DNA from: a virus
Taxonomy: Duplodnaviria > Heunggongvirae > Uroviricota > Caudoviricetes
Length of the DNA stretch: 64,000 nucleotides
Strand: one strand, 5' to 3'
IMG/VR virus record: IMGVR_UViG_3300035034_002381
Coordinates: 1 to 64,000 of that record
Shown: one piece after another, positions 7,225-49,403 of the stretch
Layout: each line of letters begins with the position of its first letter
Position numbering within the stretch: position 1 is the first letter of the stretch
The notes under the pieces: generated by a model
What the model saw: the letters and a program-made list of their open reading frames with translations, nothing else
Told to the model about the DNA's origin: nothing
Databases searched by the model: none
Translations under genes and position numbers: made by a program

Positions 7225-7425
7225 ATGGAAAGTTTTAAAAGTATACTCGAATCTAAAGATTCTGATAAACTCGCAAAAGAGATCAATAATGCAATCATTA
7301 AAATTGATGATTCTATGTCATACAAAGATTTTGCAGCTGCAGTTATCAAAATAATGAAAGAAGAATACGGAGAACACCTATATACAGAATTCTTAGGAAT
7401 TTTACAAAAAAATCTAAAGAAATGA
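7225..7425 (+). CDS. small hypothetical protein; N-terminus MESFKSILESKDSDKL is paralogous to the 47731 ORF
   Basis: 66 aa; conserved 16-aa N-terminus shared with MKSFKKVLENKEADKL. Confidence 0.45.
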   Translation: MESFKSILESKDSDKLAKEINNAIIKIDDSMSYKDFAAAVIKIMKEEYGEHLYTEFLGILQKNLKK

Positions 7426-7601
7426 AGACTTTTAAAGAATTTATAAACGAATCGGAATATATGGTGGTGAATGGAAAGAAAACGCCGAGATAACAGCTAG
7501 ACAATTATCTTCTGGGTTGGTTATTAGCATTGAACCTACAAAAATAAAAGTATTAGTTAGTACATCATCAGAACTAGATATCGATGTTTTAATGTCTAAC
7601 A

Positions 7602-7790
7602 ATGATAAAATTGAATATAGAAGTTATAGACGACTCGCCGTATACAAAACCAGGATCTACACAAAGTTTTATTAGAATAAAACTGAATGGAAAAACTATA
7701 TATGAAGATAAAGGAGCTAATTATGCCGACGCACCAAGTGACGAGATTATTAGAGCTTATGAAGAGGTGTATAAAATTAGATCCAAATAG
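7602..7790 (+). CDS. small hypothetical protein
   Basis: 62-aa ORF. Confidence 0.3.
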   Translation: MIKLNIEVIDDSPYTKPGSTQSFIRIKLNGKTIYEDKGANYADAPSDEIIRAYEEVYKIRSK

Positions 7791-8026
7791 GGAATACGTT
7801 TGCTTCTATACACAATAATTCAAAATATAAGACTTGAAAATGAAAAGATTTTTTAGAGTTGCTAGTATTACATCATTAATTGTTCTGTGTCTATTCACAT
7901 TTTTAATGCACGCGTTTCCATGGGAATGGTCAACTGATATTAGATTATATTGCATATTCACAATGGTTTCTTCATCGATTGTCGCGTATTTCGTAAGCCG
8001 TTAATAAAATTTAACATATAGATAAC

Positions 8027-8056
8027 AGTGGGACTTTTATAGTCCCACTTTTTTTG
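8027..8056 (+). terminator. rho-independent terminator (AGTGGGACT-TTTA-TAGTCCCACT plus T-run)
   Basis: Hairpin then TTTTTTT. Confidence 0.7.
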
Positions 8057-8273
8057 TTTATATTTATACTGAATTTAAAAACTCAAAATAAATGTCAAGA
8101 GAAAATATGGATTATATGGGCGATGCAGTCTACGCAGAATACACGGGATGGTCAATTGATTTACGAGTCAATGATCATCGGAATCCTGTCGCTGTCGTTT
8201 TAGAAGAACTAGTCTTACAAAATTTAGTCGATTTTGCTAGACGAAAAGGTCTTAAAATCAAATAAATTATGAA

Positions 8274-8636
8274 ATGAAAGTAATTTATTCTGCAGTTTTT
8301 GTTGATAAGTCTACCCTTATAAAAAAATTTAAACCGGTATTTGATAACATTCATGCTCATCACATGACTATTGAATTTAGACCAGAATCAACAGATAATC
8401 TGGATATTGACAAAAATTACAAATTGAAAATTATCGGTAGATTAATTACAGACAAAGTTGATGTTCTTCTTGTTGATGATGGAGGCATCAGTAAAAATGA
8501 ATTCCCACACATTACAATTTCTATAGCTGATGGTGTTAGGCCTTTCGAAAGTAATACCGAAATCAAAAATAATTATTCCAAAATAACTAAACTTCGTGGA
8601 GAAATAACAGGCAAAATCGGAGTTTTCACCGCATAA
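8274..8636 (+). CDS. hypothetical protein
   Basis: 120-aa ORF. Confidence 0.45.
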   Translation: MKVIYSAVFVDKSTLIKKFKPVFDNIHAHHMTIEFRPESTDNLDIDKNYKLKIIGRLITDKVDVLLVDDGGISKNEFPHITISIADGVRPFESNTEIKNNYSKITKLRGEITGKIGVFTA

Positions 8637-8645
8637 ATCTTAACT

Positions 8646-8870
8646 ATGAAAAAGGTAACATTTCTAATTTTAATATTGTTCAACATTAATTTATGGGCAC
8701 AAGAACAACCAGATACAGTTTATGTTCTGAAAAGTTTTACAGTCAAAGGTGTGAGAGCTGATCCTAAAACACCGATCACACAAAAAACAATAGACAAGAA
8801 ATTTATTGAACGCAATTATTTTGGTCAAGAAATTCCTATTCTTTTAAATACCACACCATCAATAAATTAG
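8646..8870 (+). CDS. short secreted protein resembling the N-terminus (signal peptide plus start of plug region) of a Bacteroidetes TonB-dependent receptor; probable truncated host-derived fragment
   Basis: MKKVTFLILILFNINLWAQ signal, then TVKGVRADPKTPITQKTIDKKFIERNYFGQEIPILLNTTPSIN, then stop at 74 aa. Confidence 0.4.
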   Translation: MKKVTFLILILFNINLWAQEQPDTVYVLKSFTVKGVRADPKTPITQKTIDKKFIERNYFGQEIPILLNTTPSIN

Positions 8871-9119
8871 GTATGGAAAAATCTCAAGACTTTGAACCAA
8901 CCGAACCAGAAGAAATGTATTAAAATAATTGAAAATAACTCTTCCAGATTAAAACTTTTTGATTACTTTTGTATATATACTGTATATTTAAACAAACAAT
9001 AATGAAAACACAAATCAACATAACTACCAGTTATTCTTTAAGAAGCTTATGTACGTCGCTGAGACTATATGAGACAGGGTATCTATGTTGATCAAACATA
9101 TTTTTGATTACAAACTAAA

Positions 9120-9151
9120 CCCTGTCTATTTAATTAGACAGGGTTTTTTTA
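9120..9151 (+). terminator. rho-independent terminator (CCCTGTCTA-TTTA-ATTAGACAGGG plus TTTTTTT)
   Basis: Hairpin then T-run, immediately before tRNA block. Confidence 0.7.
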
Positions 9152-9154
9152 TTT

Positions 9155-9245
9155 GGAAGATAAAGCAGCTGCATTGGAGCGGCGACTAGCCTTGAAAACT
9201 AGGTCTCGGAGAAATCTGGGTGGGGTTCGAGTCCTCTGTCTTCCT
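9155..9245 (+). tRNA. tRNA-Ser (TGA), class II
   Basis: Acceptor GGAAGAT/GTCTTCC, anticodon loop CTTGAAA, long variable arm, T-arm GGGG-TTCGAGT-CCTC. Confidence 0.6.
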
Positions 9246-9277
9246 CAAAGTTTTAGTTCATTGACATATTAATATTA

Positions 9278-9361
9278 GAGGATGCGGTAATGGTGGTTAT
9301 TACAGTATCTTGGAAAGGTACCGATCGTTTATTCGGTCAGGGTTCGACTCCCTCATCCTCT
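9278..9361 (+). tRNA. tRNA-Ser (GGA), class II
   Basis: Perfect acceptor GAGGATG/CATCCTC, anticodon stem GTATC/GGTAC with loop TTGGAAA, variable hairpin CCGATCG...CGGTC, T-arm AGGG-TTCGACT-CCCT. Confidence 0.65.
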
Positions 9362-9397
9362 GCTATGTTCTTCTTAGAATAACTAATTTATGTAAAT

Positions 9398-9414
9398 GTG
9401 AGTTCGAATCTCAT
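9398..9414 (+). other. isolated T-arm-like hairpin GTGAG-TTCGAAT-CTCAT preceded by CTTAGAATA motif
   Basis: Seen in sequence. Confidence 0.3.
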
Positions 9415-9492
9415 CAAATGCTTTTAGCATCTGTAGCCAAATGGTTAGGCAATATACTTGAAATATATAACAAACGATTAGAAGAACAACAT

Positions 9493-9565
9493 GCTTCCAT
9501 AGTATAAAGGTTCATTATTCCTGTTTTGTAATCAGGCGATATCGGTTCGATTCCGATTGGGAGCT
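9493..9565 (+). tRNA. tRNA-Thr (TGT)
   Basis: Acceptor GCTTCCA/TGGGAGC, anticodon stem CCTGT/TCAGG (one mismatch) with loop TTTGTAA, T-arm ATCGG-TTCGATT-CCGAT. Confidence 0.65.
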
Positions 9566-9714
9566 CAATGAATATGATGTTTATTTAGATCCTAAAAATG
9601 ATTATCTTATTGGTATAGATAGTAAAAAAATTGAAAAGGTCGAAGAATTGTATAATGTGCGTAATAATAGACAAGGATAATTTATCTTGGAATGATATTC
9701 AAAATAAAATAAAT

Positions 9715-9795
9715 GTTTCAGTGGTGGAATGGTAGACACGTCGGTCTTAGGAACCGATGCCGAAAGGCGTGAGAGTTCGAGTCTCTCCTGGAATA
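9715..9795 (+). tRNA. tRNA-Leu (TAG), class II
   Basis: Acceptor GTTTCAG/CTGGAAT, anticodon stem TCGGT/ACCGA with loop CTTAGGA, variable arm TGCCGAAAGGCGT, T-arm GAGAG-TTCGAGT-CTCTC. Confidence 0.75.
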
Positions 9796-9796
9796 C

Positions 9797-9876
9797 ACTC
9801 TGGTGGATTAGGTAAATTGGTACAGCTAAACGGCTTAGACCCGTATCCCTTCTGGGTTCGAATCCCAGTCAGAGTA
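9797..9876 (+). tRNA. atypical 80-nt tRNA (family member A), anticodon loop CTTAGAC (TAG)
   Basis: Acceptor ACTCTGG/TCAGAGT, extended D-region GTGGATTAGGTAAATTGGTACAGCTAA, stem ACGG/CCGT, T-arm CTGGG-TTCGAAT-CCCAG. Confidence 0.55.
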
Positions 9877-9881
9877 CAAAT

Positions 9882-9961
9882 GCTCCTGTGGTTTATGTAA
9901 ATTGGCACAGCTAAGCGGCTTAAACCCGCAACCTTTATGGGTTCGAGTCCCATCAGGAGTA
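9882..9961 (+). tRNA. atypical 80-nt tRNA (family member B), anticodon loop CTTAAAC (TAA)
   Basis: Acceptor GCTCCTG/CAGGAGT, D-region GTTTATGTAAATTGGCACAGCTAA, stem GCGG/CCGC, T-arm ATGGG-TTCGAGT-CCCAT. Confidence 0.55.
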
Positions 9962-10056
9962 CAAAAGTTTATCAACGTCTTGAGTCAAGTTGGATGATGA
10001 CAAAAAGGCTAACGGCAGAAGTGAATCCATCGCACTGTGTTACATAAACTTTATCT

Positions 10057-10129
10057 GGCCAGGATTCTCAATTGGACGGGACTCTGTCTTCTAAACAGAT
10101 GTTTGTGGGTTCGAATCCCATCTTGGTCT
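10057..10129 (+). tRNA. tRNA-Arg (TCT)
   Basis: Acceptor GGCCAGG/CTTGGTC, anticodon stem TCTGT/ACAGA with loop CTTCTAA, T-arm GTGGG-TTCGAAT-CCCAT. Confidence 0.65.
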
Positions 10130-10135
10130 CTAAAC

Positions 10136-10209
10136 GCAGGTATACCTAAGTGGTTTAAAGGAGCGGATTGCAAACCCGTTATTCATTGGTTCGAATCCAA
10201 TTACCTGCT
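10136..10209 (+). tRNA. tRNA-Cys (GCA)
   Basis: Perfect acceptor GCAGGTA/TACCTGC, anticodon loop TTGCAAA, T-arm ATTGG-TTCGAAT-CCAAT. Confidence 0.7.
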
Positions 10210-10214
10210 CACTT

Positions 10215-10297
10215 GGAAGGTAACTTGATGGTGATAGAGGTAGTTTGCTAAACTACTGGCCGTTTACTCGGTCGAGGTTCGATTCCTCTGCCTTCCG
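10215..10297 (+). tRNA. tRNA-Ser (GCT), class II
   Basis: Acceptor GGAAGGT/GCCTTCC, anticodon stem GTAGT/ACTAC with loop TTGCTAA, variable hairpin GGCCG...CGGTC, T-arm GAGG-TTCGATT-CCTC. Confidence 0.65.
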
Positions 10298-10301
10298 CTA
10301 T

Positions 10302-10379
10302 GCTCCTGTGGATTATGTAAAAGCACAGCTAACACCTTGAGGAGGTGATCCTTTGTGGGTTCGAGTCCCGCCAGGAGTA
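10302..10379 (+). tRNA. atypical 78-nt tRNA (family member C), anticodon loop TTGAGGA (GAG)
   Basis: Acceptor GCTCCTG/CAGGAGT, D-region GATTATGTAAAAGCACAGCTAA, stem CACC/GGTG, T-arm GTGGG-TTCGAGT-CCCGC. Confidence 0.55.
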
Positions 10380-10419
10380 CAAAGAAGCAAAGAGTTAGTT
10401 AGGTTAGACTGGCTTGTTA

Positions 10420-10470
10420 TGTGGTGAAATTGGTAAACGCGAGCGCTTTGGTGCTTAGTAACCTTAACAC
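10420..10470 (+). other. partial tRNA-like paralog (GTGGTGAAATTGGTAAACGC D-region shared with the 10788 element; no T-arm)
   Basis: Sequence similarity only. Confidence 0.25.
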
Positions 10471-10479
10471 TTCTTATTT

Positions 10480-10553
10480 GCTGAGTTAGTATAGTCGGTT
10501 TATTACGATACCCTGGTACGGTATTAACACCAGTTCGATTCTGGTACTCAGCT
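10480..10553 (+). tRNA. tRNA-Thr (GGT)
   Basis: Perfect acceptor GCTGAGT/ACTCAGC, anticodon stem ATACC/GGTAT with loop CTGGTAC, T-arm ACCAG-TTCGATT-CTGGT. Confidence 0.75.
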
Positions 10554-10565
10554 CATGAAAAATAT

Positions 10566-10645
10566 GCCTCTGTGGATTATGTAAATTGGCACAGCTAACG
10601 GTTTCAAACTCCGATCTTTTATGGGTTCGAATCCCATCAGAGGCA
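10566..10645 (+). tRNA. atypical 80-nt tRNA (family member D), anticodon loop TTCAAAC (CAA)
   Basis: Perfect acceptor GCCTCTG/CAGAGGC, D-region GATTATGTAAATTGGCACAGCTAA, stem CGG(T)/(T)CCG, T-arm ATGGG-TTCGAAT-CCCAT. Confidence 0.55.
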
Positions 10646-10661
10646 CAAGTAGGAGAAATTT

Positions 10662-10746
10662 AGTCCAGTGGCGAAACAGGTATACGCACAAGATTTAAGC
10701 TCTTGCTTCCATTGAGGAATTGCGGGTTCGATTCCCGCCTGGATTA
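10662..10746 (+). tRNA. tRNA-Leu (TAA), class II
   Basis: Acceptor AGTCCAG/CTGGATT, anticodon stem CAAGA/TCTTG with loop TTTAAGC, variable hairpin TTCC-ATTGA-GGAA, T-arm GCGGG-TTCGATT-CCCGC. Confidence 0.7.
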
Positions 10747-10750
10747 CTAA

Positions 10751-10785
10751 GTTAGTACGGGTTCGATCCCCGTCTTGGCTACTAA
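10751..10785 (+). other. isolated T-arm-like hairpin ACGGG-TTCGATC-CCCGT (tRNA fragment)
   Basis: Seen in sequence. Confidence 0.3.
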
Positions 10786-10787
10786 AT

Positions 10788-10899
10788 TTGACCGTGGTGA
10801 AATTGGTAAACACACCCTTAAATCAGGGAGTATGAGAATATGTACTTGAAGCTGACGCAGAACATCATACATATGTAGGTTCGAATCCTATCGGTCGAA
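10788..10899 (+). ncRNA. 112-nt tRNA-like RNA with a ~44-nt insertion: a 7-bp hairpin ATATGTA...TACATAT between the anticodon-arm-like region and the T-arm
   Basis: Acceptor TTGACCG/CGGTCGA, D-region GTGAAATTGGTAAACAC, CCCT-TAAATC-AGGG, inserted hairpin 10838-10874, T-arm GTAGG-TTCGAAT-CCTAT. Confidence 0.45.
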
Positions 10900-10904
10900 C
10901 AAAT

Positions 10905-10978
<74 letters not shown>

Positions 10979-10984
10979 CTATCT

Positions 10985-12712: not shown

Positions 12713-14710
12713 ATGAAAAAACTATTACTATTATTAATGCTATTTTCTTCTGTGAATTTATTTTCACAAGAAAATTATTTGATCCTTGATACCATTGGTA
12801 TGGATCAATACGAAAAACAAATTTTTGAGGAAAAAGTAAATTCCCCAGAATCTAACGAAGAGATTTCATGTTTAACCTTATTTGCTGGATCCAGACATGA
12901 ATTTAATTCAAAGTTAAAATCAATTAACGAATCAAAAAGCAATGTTGATATTAACGAAACTATTAGAATTCCCGTTGTTTATCATATTATGCACATTACC
13001 AAATTTGGTCTTGGTGGAGTTCCTTTCGAATCAGGACTAATTAGCAAACAACAAGTGTGGTCTGCTTTGGATGATCATATTAAAGGATTCCAAGCATATG
13101 TTGGGACTCGTCAAGAAACGGGATATGATACTAATATAGAATTTTATTTAGCAAACCTGGATGAAGAAGGAAATTTATTTGACGGTGTTATTTATTATGA
13201 TATGGACACAGTCCCCTGGGTAACTACTGAGGAAAGAGAACAATTTTTTAATTTCGGAATGTTTGGTATTGGACTTGATGATTTCTTAATCAAAAATAAC
13301 ATTTCATTAGACCCTGATAGATATCTAAATGTTTACATTACTCCAGAGATTTCTGGTAATGATGGAGGTAATGGGATCCAAGGATATGCATTTTTTCCAG
13401 GTGGTACTCAAGCACTTTGGGGACAAACAAATTTATCAAATATAGTAGGATTACCTTCAGTAAACTATTATGATGCTGATTTTGATGGTATAATGGACGA
13501 AGGAGTGGGGCCTTTACTTAAACCCAGTGCTCAAGAAAATGATACCCATCCACACGAAACCGGACATAATTTCCGTCTTTATCATACATTCCAAGGACAA
13601 AGTTGTGCAATTGAAGGTAATTGTGATACCCAAGGAGATGGAATCTGTGATACGGAGCCAACCCCACGTAATACCCAATGTAATTATAATGGGTGTCCGA
13701 CTCCTACCCCCGTTTCTAATAAGAATTATATGTCATATTCAGAATGCAGGTTTGAATTTACCGAAGACCAAAACCATGAAATGCGATCTTCTTTCACTGA
13801 AGATCTACCATTACTTGTTAGCAGTATTGATTCGGGATTATGTTATATTCCAAGACAAACCCAAGTTGAAATGATCATCCCACAATCAAACGATATAACA
13901 GGATGTCCCGATTCTCCTTTCCTTTCTTTTACTGTAAGAAACCTAGGTCCTGAAGTTGATTCAACAGGAATCCCGGTTATGTTAACAAATCTTGTTATAG
14001 CTTATGGAAATGATTTGTCTAACGTTGACACGTTTGAATTTAATTTAAATTTAGGTCCTTTCCAATATGATGATTTAGTTTTACCTTCTGTAGATAATCA
14101 AAGTTCAAATAGAAAGATCAAATTACTTTCTGTTAACGGATTTCCGGTAGAAGATTCAAGCACTCTTTCTACTAATCTTCCAGTAGGACCTAATGAATTA
14201 ATTGTAGTTTGCCAACCAAACTGTTCATCAATACAAGATAATTATTGGAAAGTTACAAATTTAAATACTGGAACTATTGCATTCCAAAGTGAATATTATC
14301 CTGTTAATTATTCAGGACCTCCTATCGAAACAAGGATCTGTTTACCTGGAGGCAATTATCAATTTTCATTAATTGATGAATCTGAAAATGGTTGGAATGG
14401 TACTTTTTGTAATCCCGATTTTTTCGATGAACCATTTATGGAAGTTTATTACAATGGATCCTTATGTCAATCTATACAAGGTGATGAATTTAATAGTTCT
14501 GAGTGGTCATTTACAAATTGTAACACTAGTACTCAGGGACTGATTGAAAATGAAGAAGAACCTGTTTTAGAATATGAGTACTATACTCAACAAATGGAAA
14601 GAGTAGAATTTGAAGATATTGTTACAAACCAATTCTTTATAATTTATACTTATGAAAAATCTGAAAGTTCTAGAGAGTTGATCGATAGAGATTGGATCAT
14701 AAAACAGTAA
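12713..14710 (+). CDS. secreted zinc metallopeptidase, metzincin-like (HExxHxxxxxH; M43/pappalysin-like), Cys-rich
   Basis: Bacteroidetes-type signal peptide MKKLLLLLMLFSSVNLFSQ; motif HETGHNFRLYH; many Cys in the region around it. Confidence 0.55.
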   Translation: MKKLLLLLMLFSSVNLFSQENYLILDTIGMDQYEKQIFEEKVNSPESNEEISCLTLFAGSRHEFNSKLKSINESKSNVDINETIRIPVVYHIMHITKFGLGGVPFESGLISKQQVWSALDDHIKGFQAYVGTRQETGYDTNIEFYLANLDEEGNLFDGVIYYDMDTVPWVTTEEREQFFNFGMFGIGLDDFLIKNNISLDPDRYLNVYITPEISGNDGGNGIQGYAFFPGGTQALWGQTNLSNIVGLPSVNYYDADFDGIMDEGVGPLLKPSAQENDTHPHETGHNFRLYHTFQGQSCAIEGNCDTQGDGICDTEPTPRNTQCNYNGCPTPTPVSNKNYMSYSECRFEFTEDQNHEMRSSFTEDLPLLVSSIDSGLCYIPRQTQVEMIIPQSNDITGCPDSPFLSFTVRNLGPEVDSTGIPVMLTNLVIAYGNDLSNVDTFEFNLNLGPFQYDDLVLPSVDNQSSNRKIKLLSVNGFPVEDSSTLSTNLPVGPNELIVVCQPNCSSIQDNYWKVTNLNTGTIAFQSEYYPVNYSGPPIETRICLPGGNYQFSLIDESENGWNGTFCNPDFFDEPFMEVYYNGSLCQSIQGDEFNSSEWSFTNCNTSTQGLIENEEEPVLEYEYYTQQMERVEFEDIVTNQFFIIYTYEKSESSRELIDRDWIIKQ

Positions 14711-17119: not shown

Positions 17120-19195
17120 ATGAACAAAGATTCTAATGTATTATTAATACTTGAAAGATCTTCATCAAATCTAGATGTTAACAAGGAATCGGGTGATTAT
17201 ATTCTCGAAGGTATTTTTGCTCAATTTGGAGTTGAAAACAATAACAAAAGGATTTATGAGGAAAAAGAGTATTTACCACATCTCGAATACTTAAAAAAGA
17301 AAATTTCAGAAAATCGATTGATGGGAGAACTTGATCACCCAGAAAAATTTGAAATTGCTTTAGACAAAGTATCTCACGTAATTGAGAATATTGAATATGA
17401 TCAAGCAAAACGCCAGATTAAAGGGCGTGTACGTATTTTAGATACGCCATCCGGAAAAATCGCAAAGAGTCTAATCGACTCTAATATTCCTATTAGTATT
17501 TCATCACGAGCTGCTGGTTCTGTGAGTGAAAATAAAACTGTTTCTATTAAGAGAATTTTTACTTATGATTTAGTTGCTGATCCAGGTTTTGAAGATGCAC
17601 AATTATCAAGAATAAATGAATCATTTGGTTTAGACAACGAAAATAATCTACAAATTTTTGATGCTTCTAGATGGGACAACAATTTTTCGTTTGATGAAAA
17701 AGAAAAAGAAAAGCCTGTTGAGGCAATAAAAGAAAATAAAGAAAATACTACAGATATGAAAGAATTTGTGACAATTGAAAGCATGGAACGCTATTCATTA
17801 ATGGTCAAAGAAGAAATTGCTAAAATCAATACACGATTAGAAACTCTGAATGAGAGTAATGCTAATTCTGATGAAACAGCAGAACTTAGAAAAACCGTTG
17901 ATAATTTAGTAGGGTATGTTAATGAAATGGCTACCGAAATTAATCAAAACAGAGAATACATGTCATATACTGCTGAAATGCTTGACGAAAGTATTTCTTG
18001 GTCAGAAAATGAGATCGGTAATCAAGTTACTAAATTAATTGAATATACTGAATCTGAATTGGCTGTTCATCTTGATGGTTTAATTGAACACAATAACTAT
18101 CTTGCAGAAAAATTAAACACGACTATTGGATACGTTAATGAAGAATTGGCTCCAATTTTAGATGAGTCTATTAATCACAATGATTATTTAGTTGAACAAA
18201 TTGCTAATAACCGAAAATATACTGAGTATCTTGCTGAAAATGCTGTAGACTCAACAAATTTTGATTCGTTAGTAGAATATACTGAACATGTATATGAAAA
18301 TGCTGCTGGAAAATTTGAAGGTAAAATTAATGAATCTGCAACTGCTGAGGATGTAATTAAAAAACATAAACTTAAAACACATCACGATGTTGCTAAGTTT
18401 ATAGGAGATTTTTATGATTTACCAGATACAATTAAAGGATCTACCGATAAATTCACATTTAAAGACGTTGAGGACAACGTAATTAAAGTTGATGGTAAAG
18501 CAGGAACAGTAGACGGTAAAAAATTATCTCTGGCGGGATTGGTTGATCTTATGTCAGGTGGTGATTTTGATCTTCTTATTGAAAATCAAGCTAATAAAAT
18601 TAACGAAAATAAAAACGTATCAACAGATATTGAAAATCGATACATGAGTATCAATGAAAAAATTGACGCGGCTCTTGAGCAGATCAAGAAAACAAAGACT
18701 GAAGAAATCACAGAGTCTAAACGTCATCCTTTCACCAAACTACTCAACGAAAGTAATAGAGCTGCTTTCACTGAGTTAGGAAAAACCGAAAAAGAAAAGG
18801 TTTCAAAAGCTCTAAATGAAAACGGTATTTTAAGTACTGTAAAACTTAACGAAAAATTCACTTCATTGTTAGAAGGTAATTTCGAAATTGTTGAAGAGCC
18901 TAAATGGTTATCTGAAGCACCAGACAAGTATAAAGCTATTTTTGAAAGTTTGAATGAGGAAACTCAGGATAAACTTAGAGCTCAAGCTTCATGGTACGAA
19001 GGTAAACTTAAATCTCCTTATCAAATCGAAAATTTCTGGGCAACTAGAGGACTGAACGAAGACGTTGAGTTGAAGAATCTGAAAGACGATGCTGATGTAA
19101 AACTTATTAAAGAAAGTAATGATAGATCTAAAGATCTGGGTTATTCTTCTGATCGAGTTGCTGCAATTAAACAAGGTCTGAAAAGATTCAAATAA
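17120..19195 (+). CDS. prohead maturation protease (HK97/S78-like N-terminal domain) fused to a scaffolding-like coiled-coil region
   Basis: N-terminal ~150 aa with GELDHPE and ISISSRAAGS resembling the S78 His and Ser motifs; remaining ~540 aa acidic, helical and repeat-rich; immediately upstream of capsid gene. Confidence 0.55.
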   Translation: MNKDSNVLLILERSSSNLDVNKESGDYILEGIFAQFGVENNNKRIYEEKEYLPHLEYLKKKISENRLMGELDHPEKFEIALDKVSHVIENIEYDQAKRQIKGRVRILDTPSGKIAKSLIDSNIPISISSRAAGSVSENKTVSIKRIFTYDLVADPGFEDAQLSRINESFGLDNENNLQIFDASRWDNNFSFDEKEKEKPVEAIKENKENTTDMKEFVTIESMERYSLMVKEEIAKINTRLETLNESNANSDETAELRKTVDNLVGYVNEMATEINQNREYMSYTAEMLDESISWSENEIGNQVTKLIEYTESELAVHLDGLIEHNNYLAEKLNTTIGYVNEELAPILDESINHNDYLVEQIANNRKYTEYLAENAVDSTNFDSLVEYTEHVYENAAGKFEGKINESATAEDVIKKHKLKTHHDVAKFIGDFYDLPDTIKGSTDKFTFKDVEDNVIKVDGKAGTVDGKKLSLAGLVDLMSGGDFDLLIENQANKINENKNVSTDIENRYMSINEKIDAALEQIKKTKTEEITESKRHPFTKLLNESNRAAFTELGKTEKEKVSKALNENGILSTVKLNEKFTSLLEGNFEIVEEPKWLSEAPDKYKAIFESLNEETQDKLRAQASWYEGKLKSPYQIENFWATRGLNEDVELKNLKDDADVKLIKESNDRSKDLGYSSDRVAAIKQGLKRFK

Positions 19196-19213: not shown

Positions 19214-21007
19214 ATGAAACTTTTAAACGAACAAAAGATCTATGATGAGTGGGCTCCTATGCTAGAGGAGGAAACTTCAATCAAAGATTCTTCAAAATTG
19301 GGATGGATGACTAAATATTGTCACTACCATTCATTAAATGAAGCATTCACTGCACCTGCAGCTGGATTGCTTAACACGCCAGGTATGGGTAATGTAACTC
19401 CTGCTGGAGCTGCTGCCGGTGGTGCTAATGCATTCTACGGAAGTACTACTACTGGTTCAGGAGATAAATTCCCTTCATTATTGCCACTATCTATTCAGGT
19501 AGCTGCAAGAACTGTAGGATTTGATATCGTTCCTGTTATTCCTATGAACGGACCTTCGGGGGTTCTTACATACATGGATTATGTCTATGCTGGTGGAAAA
19601 GGAGCATTCGGAGCACCTCCAGGTGCTGCAGGTGCTGCAAACCCAGGTCTTAACGCTTACGCTGACAAGCCGTTAGTATTCAAAATCCAACTTGTTGGAG
19701 ATGAGAAAACTGCTTTCGATGCTGCTGCTGCGGGTGATGAATTCTTATTTGCTTCTGGTGCACTTGCTGCAACTGGAAACACACTACGTGTTGCTAAAAT
19801 CGGTCCTTCTAGAATCGACGGTCACTCTATTTTTAGAGTAATTGGAGAATCTGGTGATGCTGATGCGACTGGCGGTGCAGCTGCTGCTGTAGCGACAACT
19901 CTTACATCGCCACAATCTATCACATTGGCTTCTGTATTTACAGGAACTGCTGCGATGATTACTGCGGCTGGTGCTTTAGTTGATGCTGCTGATTCAGTAG
20001 TTAATCGTCCAGAACTTGTTAAAGCTCTTGAAGATCACGTTCAAGGTTTTGCTGGTGCAGGTCCAAACGATGATGAAGCATGGTCAGGAAATGCGACTGA
20101 TGGTACTGTATCTTACGAACCAATGCGAAGAGGTGTAGGTGAAGAGCAGTACTTCAGAACTATGGGACTTCAAGCTTTCACGAAATTCATTGAAGCTGAA
20201 ACTTTCCAAGTTGCTGCTAATGTTACTACAGAACAAATTCAAGATTTACAACGTCAGTATGGAATCGATGTGATTGCAATGATCGAGAACTCATTAGTAA
20301 ATGATATCTCTCAATCTATTAACAAGCACATTCTTTCTAGAGCTTTCGCTCTTGGATGGGGTGCAAACCTTACATTCAGAGATGTTGAAGGTGCAAACCT
20401 TAACCTTGAATTGGTAAACACTGGAACTGGTGTTACTGCAACTCCTGCTTACATTGATAAGACTGGAGTAGGTACTGCATCTGTATATCCTGCTTTCCAA
20501 GAATTTGCTGGAGCTGCTGCTGCTGCATCATTGGAAAACCAAGCAACATTCCAACGAAGAGTATATTCTAAAGTACTTGCTGCTGGAAACGTTGTTACTC
20601 AAAGAGGACGTAGAGGACCTGCAAACTTCATTGTTACTAACCTTCAGTTAGCGACAGCGTTGCAAGATTCTGCACAATTCTCTTGGGCACCAATGGCAAA
20701 CACCATTAACCAAAACAACGGTTCGCTTTACCCAGTGGGTACTGTAGCCGGAATGACTGTTTATGTAGATCCTAACATGGGATTCTCTGATAACAGAATT
20801 CTTGTTGGACGTAAAGGTGCTGATGAAGAACCAGGACTTAAATTCATGCCTTACTTAATGGCTGAATCAATCCAAACAATTGCTGAAGGTACAATGGCTC
20901 CGAAAGTTGCCGTAAAATCACGTTATGCTTTAGTTGAAGCTGGACACCACCCAGAAACAATGTACTTTACTATTGCAGTAAATGTACCTGTAGGTGGATT
21001 AGTATAA
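19214..21007 (+). CDS. major capsid protein (putative)
   Basis: 597 aa, Ala/Gly/Thr-rich, directly follows protease-scaffold, followed by strong terminator. Confidence 0.6.
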   Translation: MKLLNEQKIYDEWAPMLEEETSIKDSSKLGWMTKYCHYHSLNEAFTAPAAGLLNTPGMGNVTPAGAAAGGANAFYGSTTTGSGDKFPSLLPLSIQVAARTVGFDIVPVIPMNGPSGVLTYMDYVYAGGKGAFGAPPGAAGAANPGLNAYADKPLVFKIQLVGDEKTAFDAAAAGDEFLFASGALAATGNTLRVAKIGPSRIDGHSIFRVIGESGDADATGGAAAAVATTLTSPQSITLASVFTGTAAMITAAGALVDAADSVVNRPELVKALEDHVQGFAGAGPNDDEAWSGNATDGTVSYEPMRRGVGEEQYFRTMGLQAFTKFIEAETFQVAANVTTEQIQDLQRQYGIDVIAMIENSLVNDISQSINKHILSRAFALGWGANLTFRDVEGANLNLELVNTGTGVTATPAYIDKTGVGTASVYPAFQEFAGAAAAASLENQATFQRRVYSKVLAAGNVVTQRGRRGPANFIVTNLQLATALQDSAQFSWAPMANTINQNNGSLYPVGTVAGMTVYVDPNMGFSDNRILVGRKGADEEPGLKFMPYLMAESIQTIAEGTMAPKVAVKSRYALVEAGHHPETMYFTIAVNVPVGGLV

Positions 21008-21116: not shown

Positions 21117-22802
21117 ATGAACACTTCAGTCAAAGATATTATAAAAAACGTAAAATCCACCAAAGGTTTAGCAGTAAAAATATCAAATTCAGAAAGTCTA
21201 AATAAAGAACTTTTAGAATTAACCAAATACCTACCAACAGACTCTAGTATATCTGAGCGCATTTATAATATCTTAAATAATATTGATGTACAAAGTCTTT
21301 GTATTTGTGGTGACACATTACCATTCATTAAAATTTCCAAAGGTTACAAAACTTCGTGTGGTAATAAAGAATGTAAGTCGCGAACACGGAGTAATATTAA
21401 TAAAGAATCCAGTAAGAAAATAGACTGGGGCGAATCGATCAATAAACAACAAAAAACCAATTTACAAAAATACGGTTATGTTTCTAATCTTGCATCACCT
21501 AAAGAACGAGAAAAACATAAAGTTATTCTTAAAGAATTGACTGGATATGAACACCCATTACAGAATCCTGAATCTAAAAAGAAAAGACATAACACTTGTA
21601 TAAAAAATCATGGTACATTAAATTTCATCCATTCAAATAAATCAATACAAACGTTACAAGCAAAATATAATACCACTGCCACTAATTGTGCTCAAATACC
21701 CGAAATTCAAGATAGATCTGCCAAAACCCAATCTATAAATGCTGATAAAGCTTTATATCAAAAAATTGATAAAATAAATAAAACTATAATAGATCTTAAT
21801 AAAACAAATGCTAATATTGAGTGTGTGGGTTGTGGTCGTATTATGAATATACATCGGCAAGCACTCAATTATTATATTCGAAATTCTATTGACAATTGTT
21901 GGTCTTGCAACCCTGATTTTTCACCATTTGCCAGTAACAAAGAAAAGATGATTGTTACATGGCTCACTGATATAGGTATCACAAATATTGACACAAATCG
22001 CCGGAGATTTGGTGGTAAAGAAATAGATATTTTCTTAAATGATTATAACCTAGGAATTGAATTCAATGGCACATATTGGCATAGTGAATTACACAAAGAA
22101 AAAAATTACCATTTAAATAAAAAAACATATATTGAGAACTTGGGTTTCAAGTTGATTAATGTTTGGGAAGATGATTGGGAAGATGATATAAAACGTAATA
22201 TAATTCAAAGCAGAATTAAAAATTTAATAAACCTAAATCACCGCAAAATATATGGGCGTAAATGTCAGATAGTTCAAATATCTAACAAAGAAGCTAAAGA
22301 ATTTTATACCAATAATCATATTCAAGGTCATGCTATATCAGAAATTAACTACGCATTAGTATATGATAATGAAATTGTTTCAGTCATGAGCTTTTCTAGT
22401 AAAAATAGATTTTTCATTAAGAAAAATAGGGATAATGAAATAGAGTTGACTAGATTTGCAAATTTGATAGGTGTAAGTGTTTTAGGTGGTTTCTCTAAAC
22501 TATTCAAACATTTTTTGAAAAATAATGACCATGATACCATTATTTCATTTGCAGAATTTGATTGGACTGATGAGACTAATAATGTTTATCTTATGAATGG
22601 TTTTAAATTTTTAGGGAATTCTGGACCATCGTATTCATGGGTTGTTAATGGAAAACGGTTTTCTAGATTTAACTTTTCTAAGCAAAAATTAATCAAAGAA
22701 GGTTATGATAAGAATAAAACAGAAGTCGAAATAATGCACGAAAGAAAATATTATCGAGCTTGGAATAGTGGTAACTTAAAATTTATTTATAATAAATTAT
22801 AA
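21117..22802 (+). CDS. free-standing homing-endonuclease-like protein (Zn-ribbon motifs plus Vsr/PD-(D/E)xK-like core)
   Basis: CxxC...CxxxC pairs (CICGD...CGNKEC; CVGCGR...CWSC); segment GGKEIDIFLNDYNLGIEFNGTYWHSE resembles Vsr/DUF559-type nuclease core; inserted after capsid gene and flanked by a duplicated capsid 3' end. Confidence 0.45.
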   Translation: MNTSVKDIIKNVKSTKGLAVKISNSESLNKELLELTKYLPTDSSISERIYNILNNIDVQSLCICGDTLPFIKISKGYKTSCGNKECKSRTRSNINKESSKKIDWGESINKQQKTNLQKYGYVSNLASPKEREKHKVILKELTGYEHPLQNPESKKKRHNTCIKNHGTLNFIHSNKSIQTLQAKYNTTATNCAQIPEIQDRSAKTQSINADKALYQKIDKINKTIIDLNKTNANIECVGCGRIMNIHRQALNYYIRNSIDNCWSCNPDFSPFASNKEKMIVTWLTDIGITNIDTNRRRFGGKEIDIFLNDYNLGIEFNGTYWHSELHKEKNYHLNKKTYIENLGFKLINVWEDDWEDDIKRNIIQSRIKNLINLNHRKIYGRKCQIVQISNKEAKEFYTNNHIQGHAISEINYALVYDNEIVSVMSFSSKNRFFIKKNRDNEIELTRFANLIGVSVLGGFSKLFKHFLKNNDHDTIISFAEFDWTDETNNVYLMNGFKFLGNSGPSYSWVVNGKRFSRFNFSKQKLIKEGYDKNKTEVEIMHERKYYRAWNSGNLKFIYNKL

Positions 22803-23235: not shown

Positions 23236-23484
23236 ATGAAAAACATAAAAGATTTTGGTGAGTTTAAATTAAATGAAAAAAGAAATGAGGCACTGAAAAA
23301 GGTTAAAACATCTTCGACTGTGCTAGATAATTTTGTTATGGATGTATTAAAAACTCAAAAGCTTTATCAAAACGAAATTCCTAAGCTACTTGCTAATGAT
23401 AAAGAATTAATAACTGAATTCAAAGAAGGTCGACAAGCATTTAATGATCTTCGAATATTAAATGATATGCTTGCAAAGAAATAA
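23236..23484 (+). CDS. small protein with capsid-targeting-like N-terminus MKNIKDFGEFKLNE
   Basis: 82 aa; family N-terminus. Confidence 0.55.
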   Translation: MKNIKDFGEFKLNEKRNEALKKVKTSSTVLDNFVMDVLKTQKLYQNEIPKLLANDKELITEFKEGRQAFNDLRILNDMLAKK

Positions 23485-23492
23485 ATAATACA

Positions 23493-23702
23493 ATGAAAAA
23501 CTTAAAAACATTTGAACAGTTTGTAACTGATAAGCTAATGGAAGGTGCAATGTCTGATATACATCTTATGGCTAAAAATTCTAAAACTATAGAAAATTTT
23601 ATAAAAGCTTTTTATAAAAAATACGATAATAAAGTCAAGAAGGGAAAAAGCACTGATGAATGGATAATCAGTCTATATAATGATATGGAATCAAAAACAT
23701 AA
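23493..23702 (+). CDS. small protein with capsid-targeting-like N-terminus MKNLKTFEQFVTDKLME
   Basis: 69 aa; family N-terminus. Confidence 0.55.
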   Translation: MKNLKTFEQFVTDKLMEGAMSDIHLMAKNSKTIENFIKAFYKKYDNKVKKGKSTDEWIISLYNDMESKT

Positions 23703-23711
23703 ATACCACTA

Positions 23712-24743
23712 ATGAAAAATTTAAAAACATTTGAACAATTTGAACTAGAAAATCTTAATGAGAAAGTGGGTTATAATCAAATTTCACACAAAAATAAAAG
23801 TTTTGTAGTTTATAATCATAAAGGAATTGAAGATTTATCTAAAAAATATAAAATTGTCAACCTAAAGAATTCTGTAGGACCTGATATAGAATTTCCTGCA
23901 ATAGCAGAATTAGATAATAATAAACCTTTTATTAGAAACATCTATAGACATGAGCTTGATAAATTAGAAAAAGGAATCTTTTTCGAATCCCATAATTTAG
24001 ACAAAGATGCTAAACTTTTTGAATCTGGAGCGATAACTAAAATTTTGACAGATGCAGGATTTATCAGTTTTGAAGACTCTGATGAATATGATTATGATAT
24101 AGGAATAGGTGGAGTAATTAACACTGTTGATCCAGGTATAGCTAAAGATATAGCAGATGAATTAAATGATAATGGTATATCTGCGAAAGCAAAAAGAGAT
24201 ACTGTAATTGTTGAATCTGTGAATGAGGGAATTTACGCTGATAAACTCGCAAAAGGATTATGGGATGGTGACATGGATTTTTCCGATTTAAGTAAAAGTG
24301 AACAAGACTTAATCGACAAGTTCGTCAAAAGAAATCTTGGTATCTTTAAAGACGAAAGATTTGAGATTCCCTTTCCTGATGAAGCTGCTGACACTGGAGA
24401 GTTTTGGGATGAAATTCAAAAAGATAAAGATTACTCAAAATTTGCAAAGGCTGTTAAAAAAGCAAGTTTGGGTGAAATTGAGTTTGTGAACGAATCTATT
24501 AATCAGATTCCTGGAGAAATACAATTTAATGTTGAACCACATACGTTTCTTAAAGATCCTAGAGAACTAGACAAAGCAGTAGCTGAAGTTGATAAATATT
24601 TAGCGGGCGGTAAAGAAAACATTGGCGGATTTATGATAGATCGATATTTAAAAGATTCTTTTGATCTTGATGCGTTTATTGACTCTGTGCATTTACATTA
24701 CCCTAGACCAATGATTCCTGAAATTCAATCCAAGAATCTATGA
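23712..24743 (+). CDS. acidic protein with capsid-targeting-like N-terminus MKNLKTFEQFELENLNE
   Basis: 343 aa; family N-terminus. Confidence 0.6.
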   Translation: MKNLKTFEQFELENLNEKVGYNQISHKNKSFVVYNHKGIEDLSKKYKIVNLKNSVGPDIEFPAIAELDNNKPFIRNIYRHELDKLEKGIFFESHNLDKDAKLFESGAITKILTDAGFISFEDSDEYDYDIGIGGVINTVDPGIAKDIADELNDNGISAKAKRDTVIVESVNEGIYADKLAKGLWDGDMDFSDLSKSEQDLIDKFVKRNLGIFKDERFEIPFPDEAADTGEFWDEIQKDKDYSKFAKAVKKASLGEIEFVNESINQIPGEIQFNVEPHTFLKDPRELDKAVAEVDKYLAGGKENIGGFMIDRYLKDSFDLDAFIDSVHLHYPRPMIPEIQSKNL

Positions 24744-24937
24744 ATGAAGCTAGTCATAAAAATGATTTTCTTGATTTTTTCCGAGTTCCTGATTCTAAAA
24801 GGTTAAAATTTGCAATTTATAAATTTGATGGTAATGACGATATGGATGATTTATTTGATGATCTTAAACCTTATGCATCGACAGTTGATGAGGTTAGAAA
24901 CTATTATGAAATAGCAACAAAAACACGCGATAATTAA
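24740..24937 (+). CDS. small acidic hypothetical protein
   Basis: 65 aa; ATGA overlap. Confidence 0.4.
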   Translation: MNEASHKNDFLDFFRVPDSKRLKFAIYKFDGNDDMDDLFDDLKPYASTVDEVRNYYEIATKTRDN

Positions 24938-25806
24938 TGAACTTTAAAACATATTCACATCTGAAGGAAATTCTTCATGAAAGTGAAAATTATCAAGAAG
25001 TAATACATGAAGCTTTTGAATGGATTGAGGATGATTCTATTTTTGAGGCATACGCGTGGGCTTTTATTAAAAGCCCTGTTAAAGTGACTAAAATGTTTAC
25101 TAATCAAAATAAGCTTACAAAATCTTTAATTAGTCAGGCTGTTATTGATATTGATCTACAGAATCGTAAAGAAGCTGCTAAAAAAATATCTGACCCACAG
25201 AAAGCCAAAAACCAGAGAGAAAAACTCCAACAAGCTCATGACATAAAGAAAAAGGGTTTATCCGATAAAATCAGTGGTATAAAACAAAGAATTGATGATT
25301 TAGCTGGTAGTGATTCTAAACTTCAAGAATTGGCTTCAAATTTAAAAACTAAATCTGGATTAGCTGCTGCAGAGAAATTAATTAAGGCAGCTGATGGGGC
25401 AGAACAGAAAGAATTACAAATTAAGATTAGAAAAAGTAAAGAAAAACTTTCGAGACAAGAAAACATTTTTAAAGAATATGAGTCTAATCTTTCTACTGAG
25501 GATAAAGCTAAAGGTCAAGAACAAGCTAAAACTGCTAAATCTGAAGACGATGGAAAATCTGATTCTACTAAAAAGGATGCAGAGTCTTCTATTGAGGAAA
25601 AAATCGAGGCGGAAAAGGATGCAATTAACGATTTAGTTAGAGAATTTAATGGGAAGAAAAAGAAAATTGCAGAAGCTAGAAAAAGATCGCATATTACACA
25701 AGCAAAATTTGATGAGTTAATGAAAAATCTCATGAAAGAAGGTCACCAAGAAAAAATTGATGTTCATAAAAAGAACATTATAGATTTAAAAAAGAATAGC
25801 AAATAA
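24937..25806 (+). CDS. Lys/Glu-rich coiled-coil hypothetical protein
   Basis: 289 aa; N-terminus MNFKTYSHLKEILHE weakly family-like. Confidence 0.5.
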   Translation: MNFKTYSHLKEILHESENYQEVIHEAFEWIEDDSIFEAYAWAFIKSPVKVTKMFTNQNKLTKSLISQAVIDIDLQNRKEAAKKISDPQKAKNQREKLQQAHDIKKKGLSDKISGIKQRIDDLAGSDSKLQELASNLKTKSGLAAAEKLIKAADGAEQKELQIKIRKSKEKLSRQENIFKEYESNLSTEDKAKGQEQAKTAKSEDDGKSDSTKKDAESSIEEKIEAEKDAINDLVREFNGKKKKIAEARKRSHITQAKFDELMKNLMKEGHQEKIDVHKKNIIDLKKNSK

Positions 25807-26081
25807 TGAAAAAGGCAAGAACATTTACAGAATTTAATGAGTCTATATCAAACGAAGAAGAACTAAATGAAGCAGTCGATGTATTTATCGCAATTGCTGA
25901 AGCTTTAGACGTAAGTTTAGATGTCGCAAAAATGATAGTAGCTTTGGCAGGAGTCACCGGAACAGTAACTTTCGCAGCAGCAATGACAAAAATCCAAGAT
26001 GTATTGGCAAAGAAAAATCCTAAATTATCTAAGAAATTAGGTGATATTACAAAAGGAGCAAATAACGCGAGAACACAATAG
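25806..26081 (+). CDS. small protein with N-terminus MKKARTFTEFNESISNEEELNE
   Basis: 91 aa; family-like N-terminus. Confidence 0.5.
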   Translation: MKKARTFTEFNESISNEEELNEAVDVFIAIAEALDVSLDVAKMIVALAGVTGTVTFAAAMTKIQDVLAKKNPKLSKKLGDITKGANNARTQ

Positions 26082-46681: not shown

Positions 46682-46717
46682 GATTTTCTTTTCATAATTA
46701 ATCCATTCTGTGGATTA

Positions 46718-46751
46718 AAGCCCGAGCAAATTAATGCTCGGGCTTTTTTAT
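46718..46751 (+). terminator. rho-independent terminator (AAAGCCCGAGC-AAATTAAT-GCTCGGGCTTT plus TTTTA)
   Basis: 11-bp hairpin; second hairpin TTAATCCA-TTCTG-TGGATTAA just upstream. Confidence 0.7.
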
Positions 46752-46796: not shown

Positions 46797-47360
46797 ATGA
46801 AAAATTTAAAATCTTACGAAAATTTTGAGAATCAACTTTTAGAAAATGGGTGGAGTGGTGAACATCTCGACGCAAATTTTAAACTTGATGGAAATGAAGT
46901 AATTGTGACTTTTGATAAAGCCATGACTTCAGCAGTCAAAAAAGTTCTTGCTGGAAAGAACGATCCTCTACTTGATACAGTAGAGGATGAGATCAGAATT
47001 CAATTAGGTAGAGAAATTGACTGGGATCAAGATGTTGAACCATCTAAATCAGGTATAGGAATGAGATTTGTGCTTGAACATATTCAACTTTTTGAAGGAA
47101 AAGCTTCGCCTGGTGGTGAAATAGAAATTAAAGAACTACAAGATTTGGTAGATGATTTACCTAAAACTGTAATTACACAAAACGCAGAGTACGACAGATT
47201 CGACAGAAATTTTAATTTTGAATTTACAATTAGTGGTGATAATTGGCAGATATATTATGACAAATTGGCCAAGTCACCATATTTATTAAATCTGGATAGT
47301 GGAACGGATAAAGAAATAGTTAATCCACTGGAATTACAAAAATTACTTAAATCATTTTAA
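46797..47360 (+). CDS. protein with capsid-targeting-like N-terminus MKNLKSYENFENQLLE
   Basis: 187 aa; family N-terminus. Confidence 0.55.
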   Translation: MKNLKSYENFENQLLENGWSGEHLDANFKLDGNEVIVTFDKAMTSAVKKVLAGKNDPLLDTVEDEIRIQLGREIDWDQDVEPSKSGIGMRFVLEHIQLFEGKASPGGEIEIKELQDLVDDLPKTVITQNAEYDRFDRNFNFEFTISGDNWQIYYDKLAKSPYLLNLDSGTDKEIVNPLELQKLLKSF

Positions 47361-47640: not shown

Positions 47641-47730
47641 TATATATTATATTAACAAGTATAACTGAGGTCATTCTAGGCCATCTAGATTTAACACAGA
47701 AGGTCATAGATATAAAATTTAATACACAAA

Positions 47731-47925
47731 ATGAAAAGTTTCAAAAAAGTCTTAGAAAACAAAGAAGCTGATAAGCTATATACTTTAAAACTGGACTTGA
47801 TCAGTTGGTGGAAAGAAAATTCAAGTAAACCAAATGTTATAAAAAAGAGAAAAAACATTCAAGGTAAAATTGATCAAGTAGTAAAATTATTAGATGAAGT
47901 TGTAGATGAAACTTATGAAAAGTAA
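47731..47925 (+). CDS. small protein, N-terminus MKSFKKVLENKEADKL paralogous to the 7225 ORF
   Basis: 64 aa. Confidence 0.45.
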   Translation: MKSFKKVLENKEADKLYTLKLDLISWWKENSSKPNVIKKRKNIQGKIDQVVKLLDEVVDETYEK

Positions 47926-48876: not shown

Positions 48877-49403
48877 AAGATAAAAATTTAAAATATGAAT
48901 CGAAGAGATTTAACGTTGTTAAAAAACAGGGTAGAGTTAAAATAGATTATAAAAAAATGACAGTTGGCGTTTTACCATATACTATTAAAGATGGACTCCT
49001 AGACAAAATTGGTATTCTGCATGAATGGAATCCTACAAGACAAGATGATTTTTGTCACACGATAATCACTGGTACTGTAGACCCAGAAGATACTGATTAT
49101 CTTTTTGCGGCAAAAAGAGAATTACTTGAGGAAGGTGGCATTAAAGATACTAATGACGATAATTGGATATTTTTAGGTTCATTTTACGTTTCAAAAGGCA
49201 GTAATGAAATGTGTCACACCTTTGCAGTAGATGTTACAGATCTAGAAATTGGTGAAGCAGTAGGAGATGGTTCTGATGCTGAAGAAAAATCTGAATTTTC
49301 TTTAATGGATTCAGGAAATGCAATTACAATTACTAATGAAAGTTTAGTCTTAGCCTCATTTCTAAGACTGTTTGACTTCTTTTATCAAAAGAATAATGGG
49401 TAA
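48873..49403 (+). CDS. Nudix hydrolase
   Basis: Nudix box GTVDPEDTDYLFAAKRELLEEGGI (G-x5-E-x7-REL-x-EE-GG). Confidence 0.65.
   Translation: MKDKNLKYESKRFNVVKKQGRVKIDYKKMTVGVLPYTIKDGLLDKIGILHEWNPTRQDDFCHTIITGTVDPEDTDYLFAAKRELLEEGGIKDTNDDNWIFLGSFYVSKGSNEMCHTFAVDVTDLEIGEAVGDGSDAEEKSEFSLMDSGNAITITNESLVLASFLRLFDFFYQKNNG

Follow-up and report, generated by a model that had tools for sequence, protein, structure and literature searches.

Two small genes of an uncultured phage share a portable N-terminal leader that resembles the T4 head-loading sequence

Why would two small genes that lie 40 kb apart in a phage genome begin with nearly the same peptide and then have nothing recognizable in common? 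The question is raised by two plus-strand open reading frames (ORFs) in the 64,000-nucleotide (nt) stretch of viral DNA analyzed here, referred to below as the window. ORF 7225 (7225 to 7425) encodes 66 amino acids (aa) starting MESFKSILESKDSDKL, and ORF 47731 (47731 to 47925) encodes 64 aa starting MKSFKKVLENKEADKL. A preliminary description of this DNA proposed that the two share a 16-aa N terminus with an [IV]-L-E triplet, that they diverge completely after it, and that they may represent a second class of protease-processed targeting peptide besides an MKNLKTFEQF family. The shared N terminus is borne out by pairwise BLASTP, with 10/16 residues identical and 15/16 positive (E value, 1e-5). 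The triplet is I7-L8-E9 in ORF 7225 and V7-L8-E9 in ORF 47731, and the divergence is complete to the limit of sequence methods: a profile-profile comparison of the two gene families aligns no more than the first 19 columns, and the BLASTP alignment consists of residues 1 to 16 only.

When the first 16 residues of 73 nonoverlapping plus-strand ORFs of the window were compared, ORFs 7225 and 47731 were the top-scoring pair (BLOSUM62 score of 57). This score was reached in 0 of 2,000 column-preserving shuffles, in which the largest score of any pair was 46. At the DNA level, 33 of the first 48 bases are identical, 4 of the 10 identical residues are encoded by different codons (TTT/TTC, CTC/TTA, AAA/AAG, and CTC/CTA), and the upstream DNA of the two ORFs does not align. 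The synonymous codon differences and the unrelated upstream DNA indicate that the N terminus is conserved at the protein level, with selection acting on the peptide. As for further members, none were found in six frames of the window for the strict motif M[EK]SFK.[IV]LE.K[DE].DKL, which occurs at these two places only; the leader that forms its first part has more carriers, in related and unrelated viral contigs. Our analysis leads us to favor, with moderate confidence, the explanation that the first nine residues, M-[EK]-S-F-K-x-[IV]-L-E, are a short-register version of the T4-type capsid targeting sequence (CTS), which would be cut after Glu9 by a gp21-type protease.

The two small genes and their families

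Both ORFs are real, conserved genes that encode small helical proteins. Fifteen homologues of ORF 7225 are found on metagenomic contigs, the longest being 202 kb. The body of this family, ESK[DE]SD.LAKEI..IKIDDSMSYKDFAAAV, starts at an invariant E-S, and the junction [LIV]xE-S is likewise invariant. The prefix before the body varies freely (MESFKSILE, MKTFIDHLNE, MKSIQEINE, MTHVTKFNDFVNE, MENTKTFNDFLNE, and MKPVKLFDDYL...YLSE), and all of these forms end in [LIV]-x-E; the hydrophobic-x-Glu end is kept in 15/15 homologues. In related contigs, the ORF 7225 orthologue always lies inside a block of leader genes. A putative cut after Glu9 would release a 57-aa product starting SKDSDKLAKEI. The body is predicted to be helical, with low confidence in the AF2 model (pLDDT of 63) and a helix break at residues 9 and 10.

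ORF 47731 has seven full-length remote homologues, and its place after a DUF4494 gene is kept in related contigs. The family N terminus is mostly MKT[FY]K[QE]x[IVM]xE, and [IVLM]xE is found in 7/8 family members. The homologue P0023 is without the Glu, which we count against a role of the leader in targeting. Homologues that start MKTYKQTITE or MKTFKQSITE are identical to the T4 CTS, MKTYQEFIAE, at up to 6 of 10 positions (6/10 for MKTYKQTITE). Compared with these relatives, the window copy has lost one residue, which places V-L-E at positions 7 to 9, and a putative cut after Glu9 would leave 55 aa starting NKEADKLYTLKL. The body is modeled by AF2 as a helical hairpin (pLDDT of 83), with residues 1 to 8 below 50, and in the models of both ORFs the leader is a low-confidence N-terminal extension. 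Neither ORF, nor any other leader-bearing protein of the window, had a match in Pfam or PHROGs, and the ORF 47731 model had no significant match among viral predicted structures (best E value, 0.9).

The window has a G+C content of 32%, and all of its genes appear to lie on the plus strand. A nucleotide search with both ORF regions found no relatives among 50,697 phage records, and a protein search of the phage collection with an ORF 7225 homologue found none either. The capsid protein of the window shares about 40% identity with its counterparts in Lak megaphages and in an uncultured 462-kb phage. The window phage is only distantly T4-like and probably infects a species of Bacteroidota, with a marine flavobacterium as the probable host. 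The window also carries 21 tRNA genes in three clusters (229 to 1094, 3901 to 4355, and 9277 to 10979), with three tRNA-Met genes and duplicated Tyr, Ile, Val, Thr, Arg, Ser, and Leu genes.

One leader in short and long forms

Nine ORFs of the window bear the leader (6577, 7225, 7422, 23236, 23493, 23712, 25806, 46797, and 47731). The short form, M-KTFKQFIxE, and the long form, MKNL-KTFEQFVNE, share one nine-residue core that sits three residues further in for the long form. Read this way, the MKNLKTFEQF leader looks to be the short-form signal with three extra residues in front. Orthologues of ORF 7225 with the same body carry long leaders of the MKxxKxFxxF(L/V)NE type (MTHVTKFNDFVNE, MENTKTFNDFLNE, and MKPVKLFDDYL...), and with this and the common core we reject an independent second class. 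The earlier proposal thus survives in kind, in that the peptide has the features expected of a protease-processed targeting peptide, and fails in its separation of two classes; in practical terms, the "second family" and the MKNLKTFEQF family should be treated as one.

Short leaders are MESFKSILE in ORF 7225 (7225 to 7251) and MKSFKKVLE in ORF 47731 (47731 to 47757). Long leaders are found on two plus-strand genes of 187 aa each, one at 6577 to 7140 (MKNVKNFREFLNE), which opens the transcription unit of ORF 7225, and one at 46797 to 47360 (MKNLKSYENFENQLLE), which opens the unit of ORF 47731. That these two genes are paralogues is unsupported, as they show no similarity beyond the leader. Four more long-leader genes (23236 to 23484, 23493 to 23702, 23712 to 24743, and 25806 to 26081, all on the plus strand) form a block at 23236 to 26081, downstream of the head genes.

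The ninth carrier is a plus-strand ORF of 23 codons (MKTFKEFINESEYMVVNGKKTPR, followed by a stop; 7422 to 7493) that overlaps the stop codon of ORF 7225 (ATGA) and joins a short-form leader to a truncated body. Its leader is identical to the T4 CTS at 7/10 positions. The DNA after this ORF is broken in all frames, and related contigs have a gene of 108 to 111 aa at that place; the gene that follows the ORF 7225 orthologue has the leader in L001 and L021 and is without it in L020. ORF 7422 is probably a decayed leader gene or gene remnant.

A Sec or lipoprotein signal peptide was considered for the leader and rejected, as the leader is charged and amphipathic and is without a hydrophobic core of eight or more residues behind a basic N terminus. 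Typical hydrophobic signal peptides, of a kind common in Bacteroidota, do occur in the window at 8646 to 8870 (MKKVTFLILILFNINLWAQ) and 12713 to 14710 (MKKLLLLLMLFSSVNLFSQ), and they give a hint of a Bacteroidota host.

Several leader genes are preceded by a candidate late-promoter motif, GATATATAA. The window has seven exact copies (6547 to 6555 and at 17091, 22890, 46766, 49514, 50448, and 56093), all on the plus strand, versus 2.08 expected; seven copies were reached in 0/100 shuffles. Six of the seven lie 12 to 42 nt upstream of genes, namely the protease gene, the tail-like genes 50463 and 56105, the leader block after the capsid gene, and the 187-aa genes 6577 and 46797. The copy at 22890 heads the long-leader block, and the copy at 49514 lies inside an ORF (49396 to 49746). 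A one-mismatch variant, GATATAAAA, is found at 47709 to 47717, 22 nt before ORF 47731, with further variants at 52026 and 62590, and the motif also occurs upstream of leader blocks in the related contigs L003, L005, and L007. A terminator hairpin at 6492 to 6517 and the copy at 6547 lie just upstream of gene 6577, and a hairpin at 46717 to 46746 and the copy at 46766 lie upstream of gene 46797. The units with ORFs 7225 and 47731 thus open alike, with a terminator hairpin, the motif, and a long-leader gene of exactly 187 aa. Related contigs share this layout, and the presence of one motif before both units, the protease gene, and tail-like genes speaks for the targeting reading.

Head genes of the window and the comparison with T4

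The window encodes a prohead protease of the T4 gp21 family (17120 to 19195, plus strand; 691 aa), which we presume to be the enzyme that processes the leader. Its protease domain occupies residues ~17 to 214 (Pfam Peptidase_S77, 5e-12; Peptidase_S80, 8e-8; phrog_207, 3e-40) and aligns to the structure of T4 gp21 (5JBL), including the catalytic motifs DHP and SSR. The remainder is rich in [LI]xE. Residues 231 to 691 contain 5.2 such sites per 100 aa versus 1.5 elsewhere in the proteome (P = 2e-7), and [LI]NE is enriched 12-fold over background (P = 9e-8); in all, this tail of ~460 residues has 24 [LI]xE and 9 [LI]NE sites. By its composition, it looks like a scaffold made to be cut up by its own N-terminal domain, and the homologue in Tenacibaculum phage PTm1 is annotated as scaffold plus protease. 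No T4_CASP scaffold domain was found in the window protein with Pfam, which counts against the targeting reading.

Directly after the protease gene lies the gene for a gp23-type major capsid protein (19214 to 21007, plus strand; Pfam Gp23, 4e-35). Its L41-N42-E43 (19334 to 19342), followed by Ala, is a likely propeptide cut site: HSLNE/AF (residues 39 to 45) aligns with TINE/NM of the PTm1 capsid protein, with the cut after E. The same kind of site marks the leaders, as [LIV]xE ends within residues 8 to 20 in 7/8 window leader ORFs versus 17/65 other ORFs (P = 0.0013). The capsid gene is directly followed by a gene for a 561-aa homing or HNH endonuclease (21117 to 22802; phrog_3339, 7e-105), and PTm1 has a Hef-like homing endonuclease in the same place. 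PTm1, in which the protease-scaffold fusion is likewise followed by the capsid protein and then the homing endonuclease, is the nearest cultured relative that has this arrangement of head genes. A scan of its complete genome found no expanded leader family, and this too we count against targeting.

In T4, gp21 cuts after the Glu of L/I-x-E, and the ten residues of the CTS, MKTYQEFIAE, suffice for a protein to be loaded into the head; targeting needs residues 4 and 7 (Y4 and F7), and processing needs residues 8 and 10 (PMC9026906, PMC8442874). The leaders of ORFs 7225 and 47731 likewise run from Met1, as residues 1 to 9. Both have F4 and a hydrophobic residue 7 (I7 or V7), followed by L8 and E9, and both end in hydrophobic-x-Glu in a register one residue shorter than that of T4. 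The likeness therefore comprises about ten residues from Met1, MK-[TS]-aromatic at positions 1 to 4, hydrophobic residues at 7 and 8, and a hydrophobic-x-Glu end on otherwise unrelated small proteins, in a genome that, like that of T4, encodes a gp21-family protease, here with its catalytic His and Ser, and a gp23-type capsid protein. In a profile built from 12 short leaders, none from T4, the T4 CTS scores 19.6 bits versus a maximum of 13.8 among 331 PTm1 N termini; without its initial MK, it ranks in the top 9e-5 of 80,558 internal 10-mers.

There are also differences. ORFs 7225 and 47731 have their Glu at position 9 rather than 10, with residue 7 as P3. The group of the window phage has a far larger leader family than the handful of T4, and many predicted mature products of leader genes are acidic (pI 4.5 to 6.5), whereas T4 internal proteins are basic; that related contigs have so many tagged genes, and that the products are so often acidic, both count against targeting. 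The T4 scaffold gp22, cut by gp21 at L/I-x-E, may have its counterpart in the [LI]xE-packed tail of the 17120 protein. The prohead-core genes 67 and 68 of T4 lie between the portal and protease genes, and in gene position a leader gene holds this slot in six T4-type contigs from IMG/VR. ORFs 7225 and 47731, unlike gp67 and gp68, are encoded outside the head module, and this again weighs against the targeting reading.

Two other systems invite comparison. In phiKZ-like giant phages, N-terminal propeptides target many head-internal proteins, such as ejection and inner-body proteins, and a protease (phiKZ gp175 or SPN3US gp245) cuts them after the Glu of S/A/G-x-E; paralogues have identical N termini and diverged bodies (PMC5694885). 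That protease is related to gp21 and also cuts after Glu, and the window protease matches Peptidase_S80 as well; the phiKZ-like propeptides, however, are often over 100 residues long, and their P3 is small rather than hydrophobic. Encapsulin nanocompartments offer an analogy only: a short portable peptide loads diverse cargo into an HK97-fold shell. Encapsulin peptides are usually C-terminal, are kept on the cargo, and are nonviral, and they have no sequence relation to the leader.

If the leader works as the T4 comparison suggests, its amphipathic peptide, with an aromatic residue at 4 and hydrophobic residues at 7 and 8, would bind the scaffolding core of the assembling prohead, and the core-bound protein would thereby be enclosed in the head. 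The gp21-type protease would then cut after Glu9 in the hydrophobic-x-Glu site. The leader would exit the head, and the mature protein of about 55 aa would stay in the capsid and enter the host with the DNA. The sequence data themselves establish the features of the leader, its conservation and portability, the protease and capsid genes, and the link with T4-type head modules; we infer core binding, cleavage, packaging, and injection from T4.

Spread of the leader and alternative readings

In the related contigs L001, L003, L005, and L007, each locus of 17 to 20 kb has 4 to 10 leader ORFs with unrelated bodies, including 8/26 ORFs in L005 and 10/35 in L007 (counts by regular expression, with a few more found by eye). 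Among 186 ORFs, a strict version of the leader core was counted 16 times within residues 1 to 20 and twice in 38,707 internal residues. A scan of IMG/VR for MK[TS]FKxx[hydrophobic]xE extended this to at least 120 contigs, and among the matches listed, 129/131 open ORFs of at least 40 aa. The free positions of this pattern show preferences: among the 117 leaders from the matches listed, position 6 is Q or E in 76 and position 7 is F, Y, or H in 104. With only MKTFKQF fixed, 84/91 unique IMG/VR ORFs have a Glu at position 9 or 10 (background Glu, 5.6%), and those with the Glu read F-x-E or F-[hydrophobic]-x-E. As both spacings are seen, the E9 register of the window ORFs is a common variant.

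These leaders are associated with T4-type head modules. Among the matches listed, T4-type portal, protease, scaffold, terminase, sheath, tube, or gp32 genes are found at 34/120 leader loci of about 9 kb each, and a leader gene lies between a T4-type portal and an S77 protease in six contigs that include both of these genes (L014, L033, L053, L069, L119, and L138). In L043 the leader gene is just after the portal gene, and the protease is off the contig. When the portal-adjacent leader protein of L119 was compared with cultured phages by tblastn, the only match was to an unrelated C-terminal segment. The bodies that follow the IMG/VR leaders include cytidylyltransferase-like, HD_4, GNAT, DUF6267, and DUF5661 proteins. 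A literature search, itself incomplete, found no published description of the leader outside the T-even phages.

Could the leader instead be a peptide that stays on the protein? It might dock on a phage or host hub protein, mark its carrier for degradation, or give a cotranslational signal. A short, amphipathic, and portable peptide suits any docking role, and several facts fit such a role well: the tagged genes are very numerous, they include cytidylyltransferase-like, HD_4, and GNAT enzymes whose need to be packaged is not obvious, and PTm1 has the protease without the leader family. A docking or regulatory peptide leaves unexplained the near-invariant hydrophobic-x-Glu end (the 84/91 count), the recurrence of this type of site in the capsid protein and in the scaffold-like tail, the high profile score of the T4 CTS, and the placement between portal and protease in six T4-type contigs. 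We consider this alternative unlikely, though it is the most serious competitor of the cleaved leader.

A second alternative is that ORFs 7225 and 47731 are old paralogues or share a 5' segment, so that their N termini would reflect common descent and the start of a structural helix rather than a portable signal. Both are two-helix proteins of ~65 aa, and their likeness runs on for seven residues beyond the proposed cut. A pure tag leaves this extension unexplained, and it counts against the targeting reading. In a profile-profile comparison of the two families, the N-terminal 19 columns align (E value, 3.7e-4; probability, 36%). The residues past the Glu, xK[DE]xDKL, belong to the body and are conserved within both families, and they are absent after other leaders: among the matches listed, the 117 IMG/VR leaders have no such preference at positions 12, 15, and 17. 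An IMG/VR scan with the full 16-residue signature gave six matches, about what base composition predicts, and is uninformative on the tail, whose residues it forces. Since xK[DE]xDKL is absent after other leaders, we place it outside the portable signal, which by this comparison would end with residue 9 of the shared 16.

The tail itself is most likely an old shared 5' segment or a sign of distant paralogy between the two families. As an account of the leader, descent fares worse: residues 1 to 9 recur on many clearly unrelated bodies of 50 to 966 aa, the body of ORF 7225 is kept in orthologues that have the long form in place of its prefix, and no similarity is detectable beyond column 19. 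We therefore regard paralogy as an improbable explanation of the shared start as a whole; it explains the tail and not the leader, and it is compatible with a targeting leader. That the similarity arose by chance, or as a by-product of A+T-rich codon usage or weak mRNA structure at starts in a genome of 32% G+C where many ORFs start MK, is effectively refuted by the 0/2,000 composition-keeping shuffles and the 84/91 Glu count, as well as by the differing codons, the unconserved upstream DNA, and an aromatic and Glu pattern specific enough to hold across contigs of differing G+C (e.g., 30% and 42% in L003 and L016).

If the T4-like leader does work as in T4, sequence alone would identify the head-loaded, host-delivered proteins of an uncultured phage. 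Some of the head-delivered proteins of T4 inhibit host restriction, and another is an enzyme that modifies the RNA polymerase of the host. As T4 injected proteins counter the host, the tagged genes would be prime candidates for early counterdefense functions. The scheme of targeting and cleavage would also be conserved over a very large evolutionary distance, and the leader would serve as a compact tag with which to load foreign proteins into the capsids of other T4-like phages. More tentatively, and with somewhat less than even confidence, the pattern MK-[TS]-F-K-[QE]-aromatic-(hydrophobic)-x-Glu may serve the whole T4 superfamily as a capsid-loading code that marks hundreds of different packed and injected proteins of uncultured phages. 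Such a code would include enzymes (cytidylyltransferase-like, HD, and GNAT) as well as small proteins like those of ORFs 7225 and 47731, each genome in this lineage of Bacteroidota phages would have come to carry dozens of such genes, and the leader would give a general readout of the injected, probably antidefense, proteome of environmental phages.

Several individual loci in other contigs deserve mention. In the IMG/VR contig L014, a very lysine-rich protein of 83 aa (918 to 1169; MKTYKELVQE/DKEDDDL) is encoded directly after a T4-type portal gene and before an S77 protease and a T4_CASP scaffold, and it resembles a basic internal or core protein of the T4 style. In L126 (IMG/VR; 6502 to 9422), four genes between T4-type tube and sheath genes start MKTFKQFI[TSL]E, the first three of them adjacent, and have unrelated bodies of 119 to 275 aa; blocks of leader genes thus extend beyond the lineage of the window. 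A 164-aa protein of L020 (1635 to 2129), which starts MKNVKTYQQFLNE, has a second, internal leader core, AFEQFLNENKK, at about residue 70 and looks as if two leader genes had fused. Finally, a 73-aa short-leader gene (MKTFKQVLNE...) with its own copy of GATATATAA is inserted in L003 (13491 to 13712) between two baseplate-like genes that are adjacent in the window (54637 to 56094 and 56105 to 59023).
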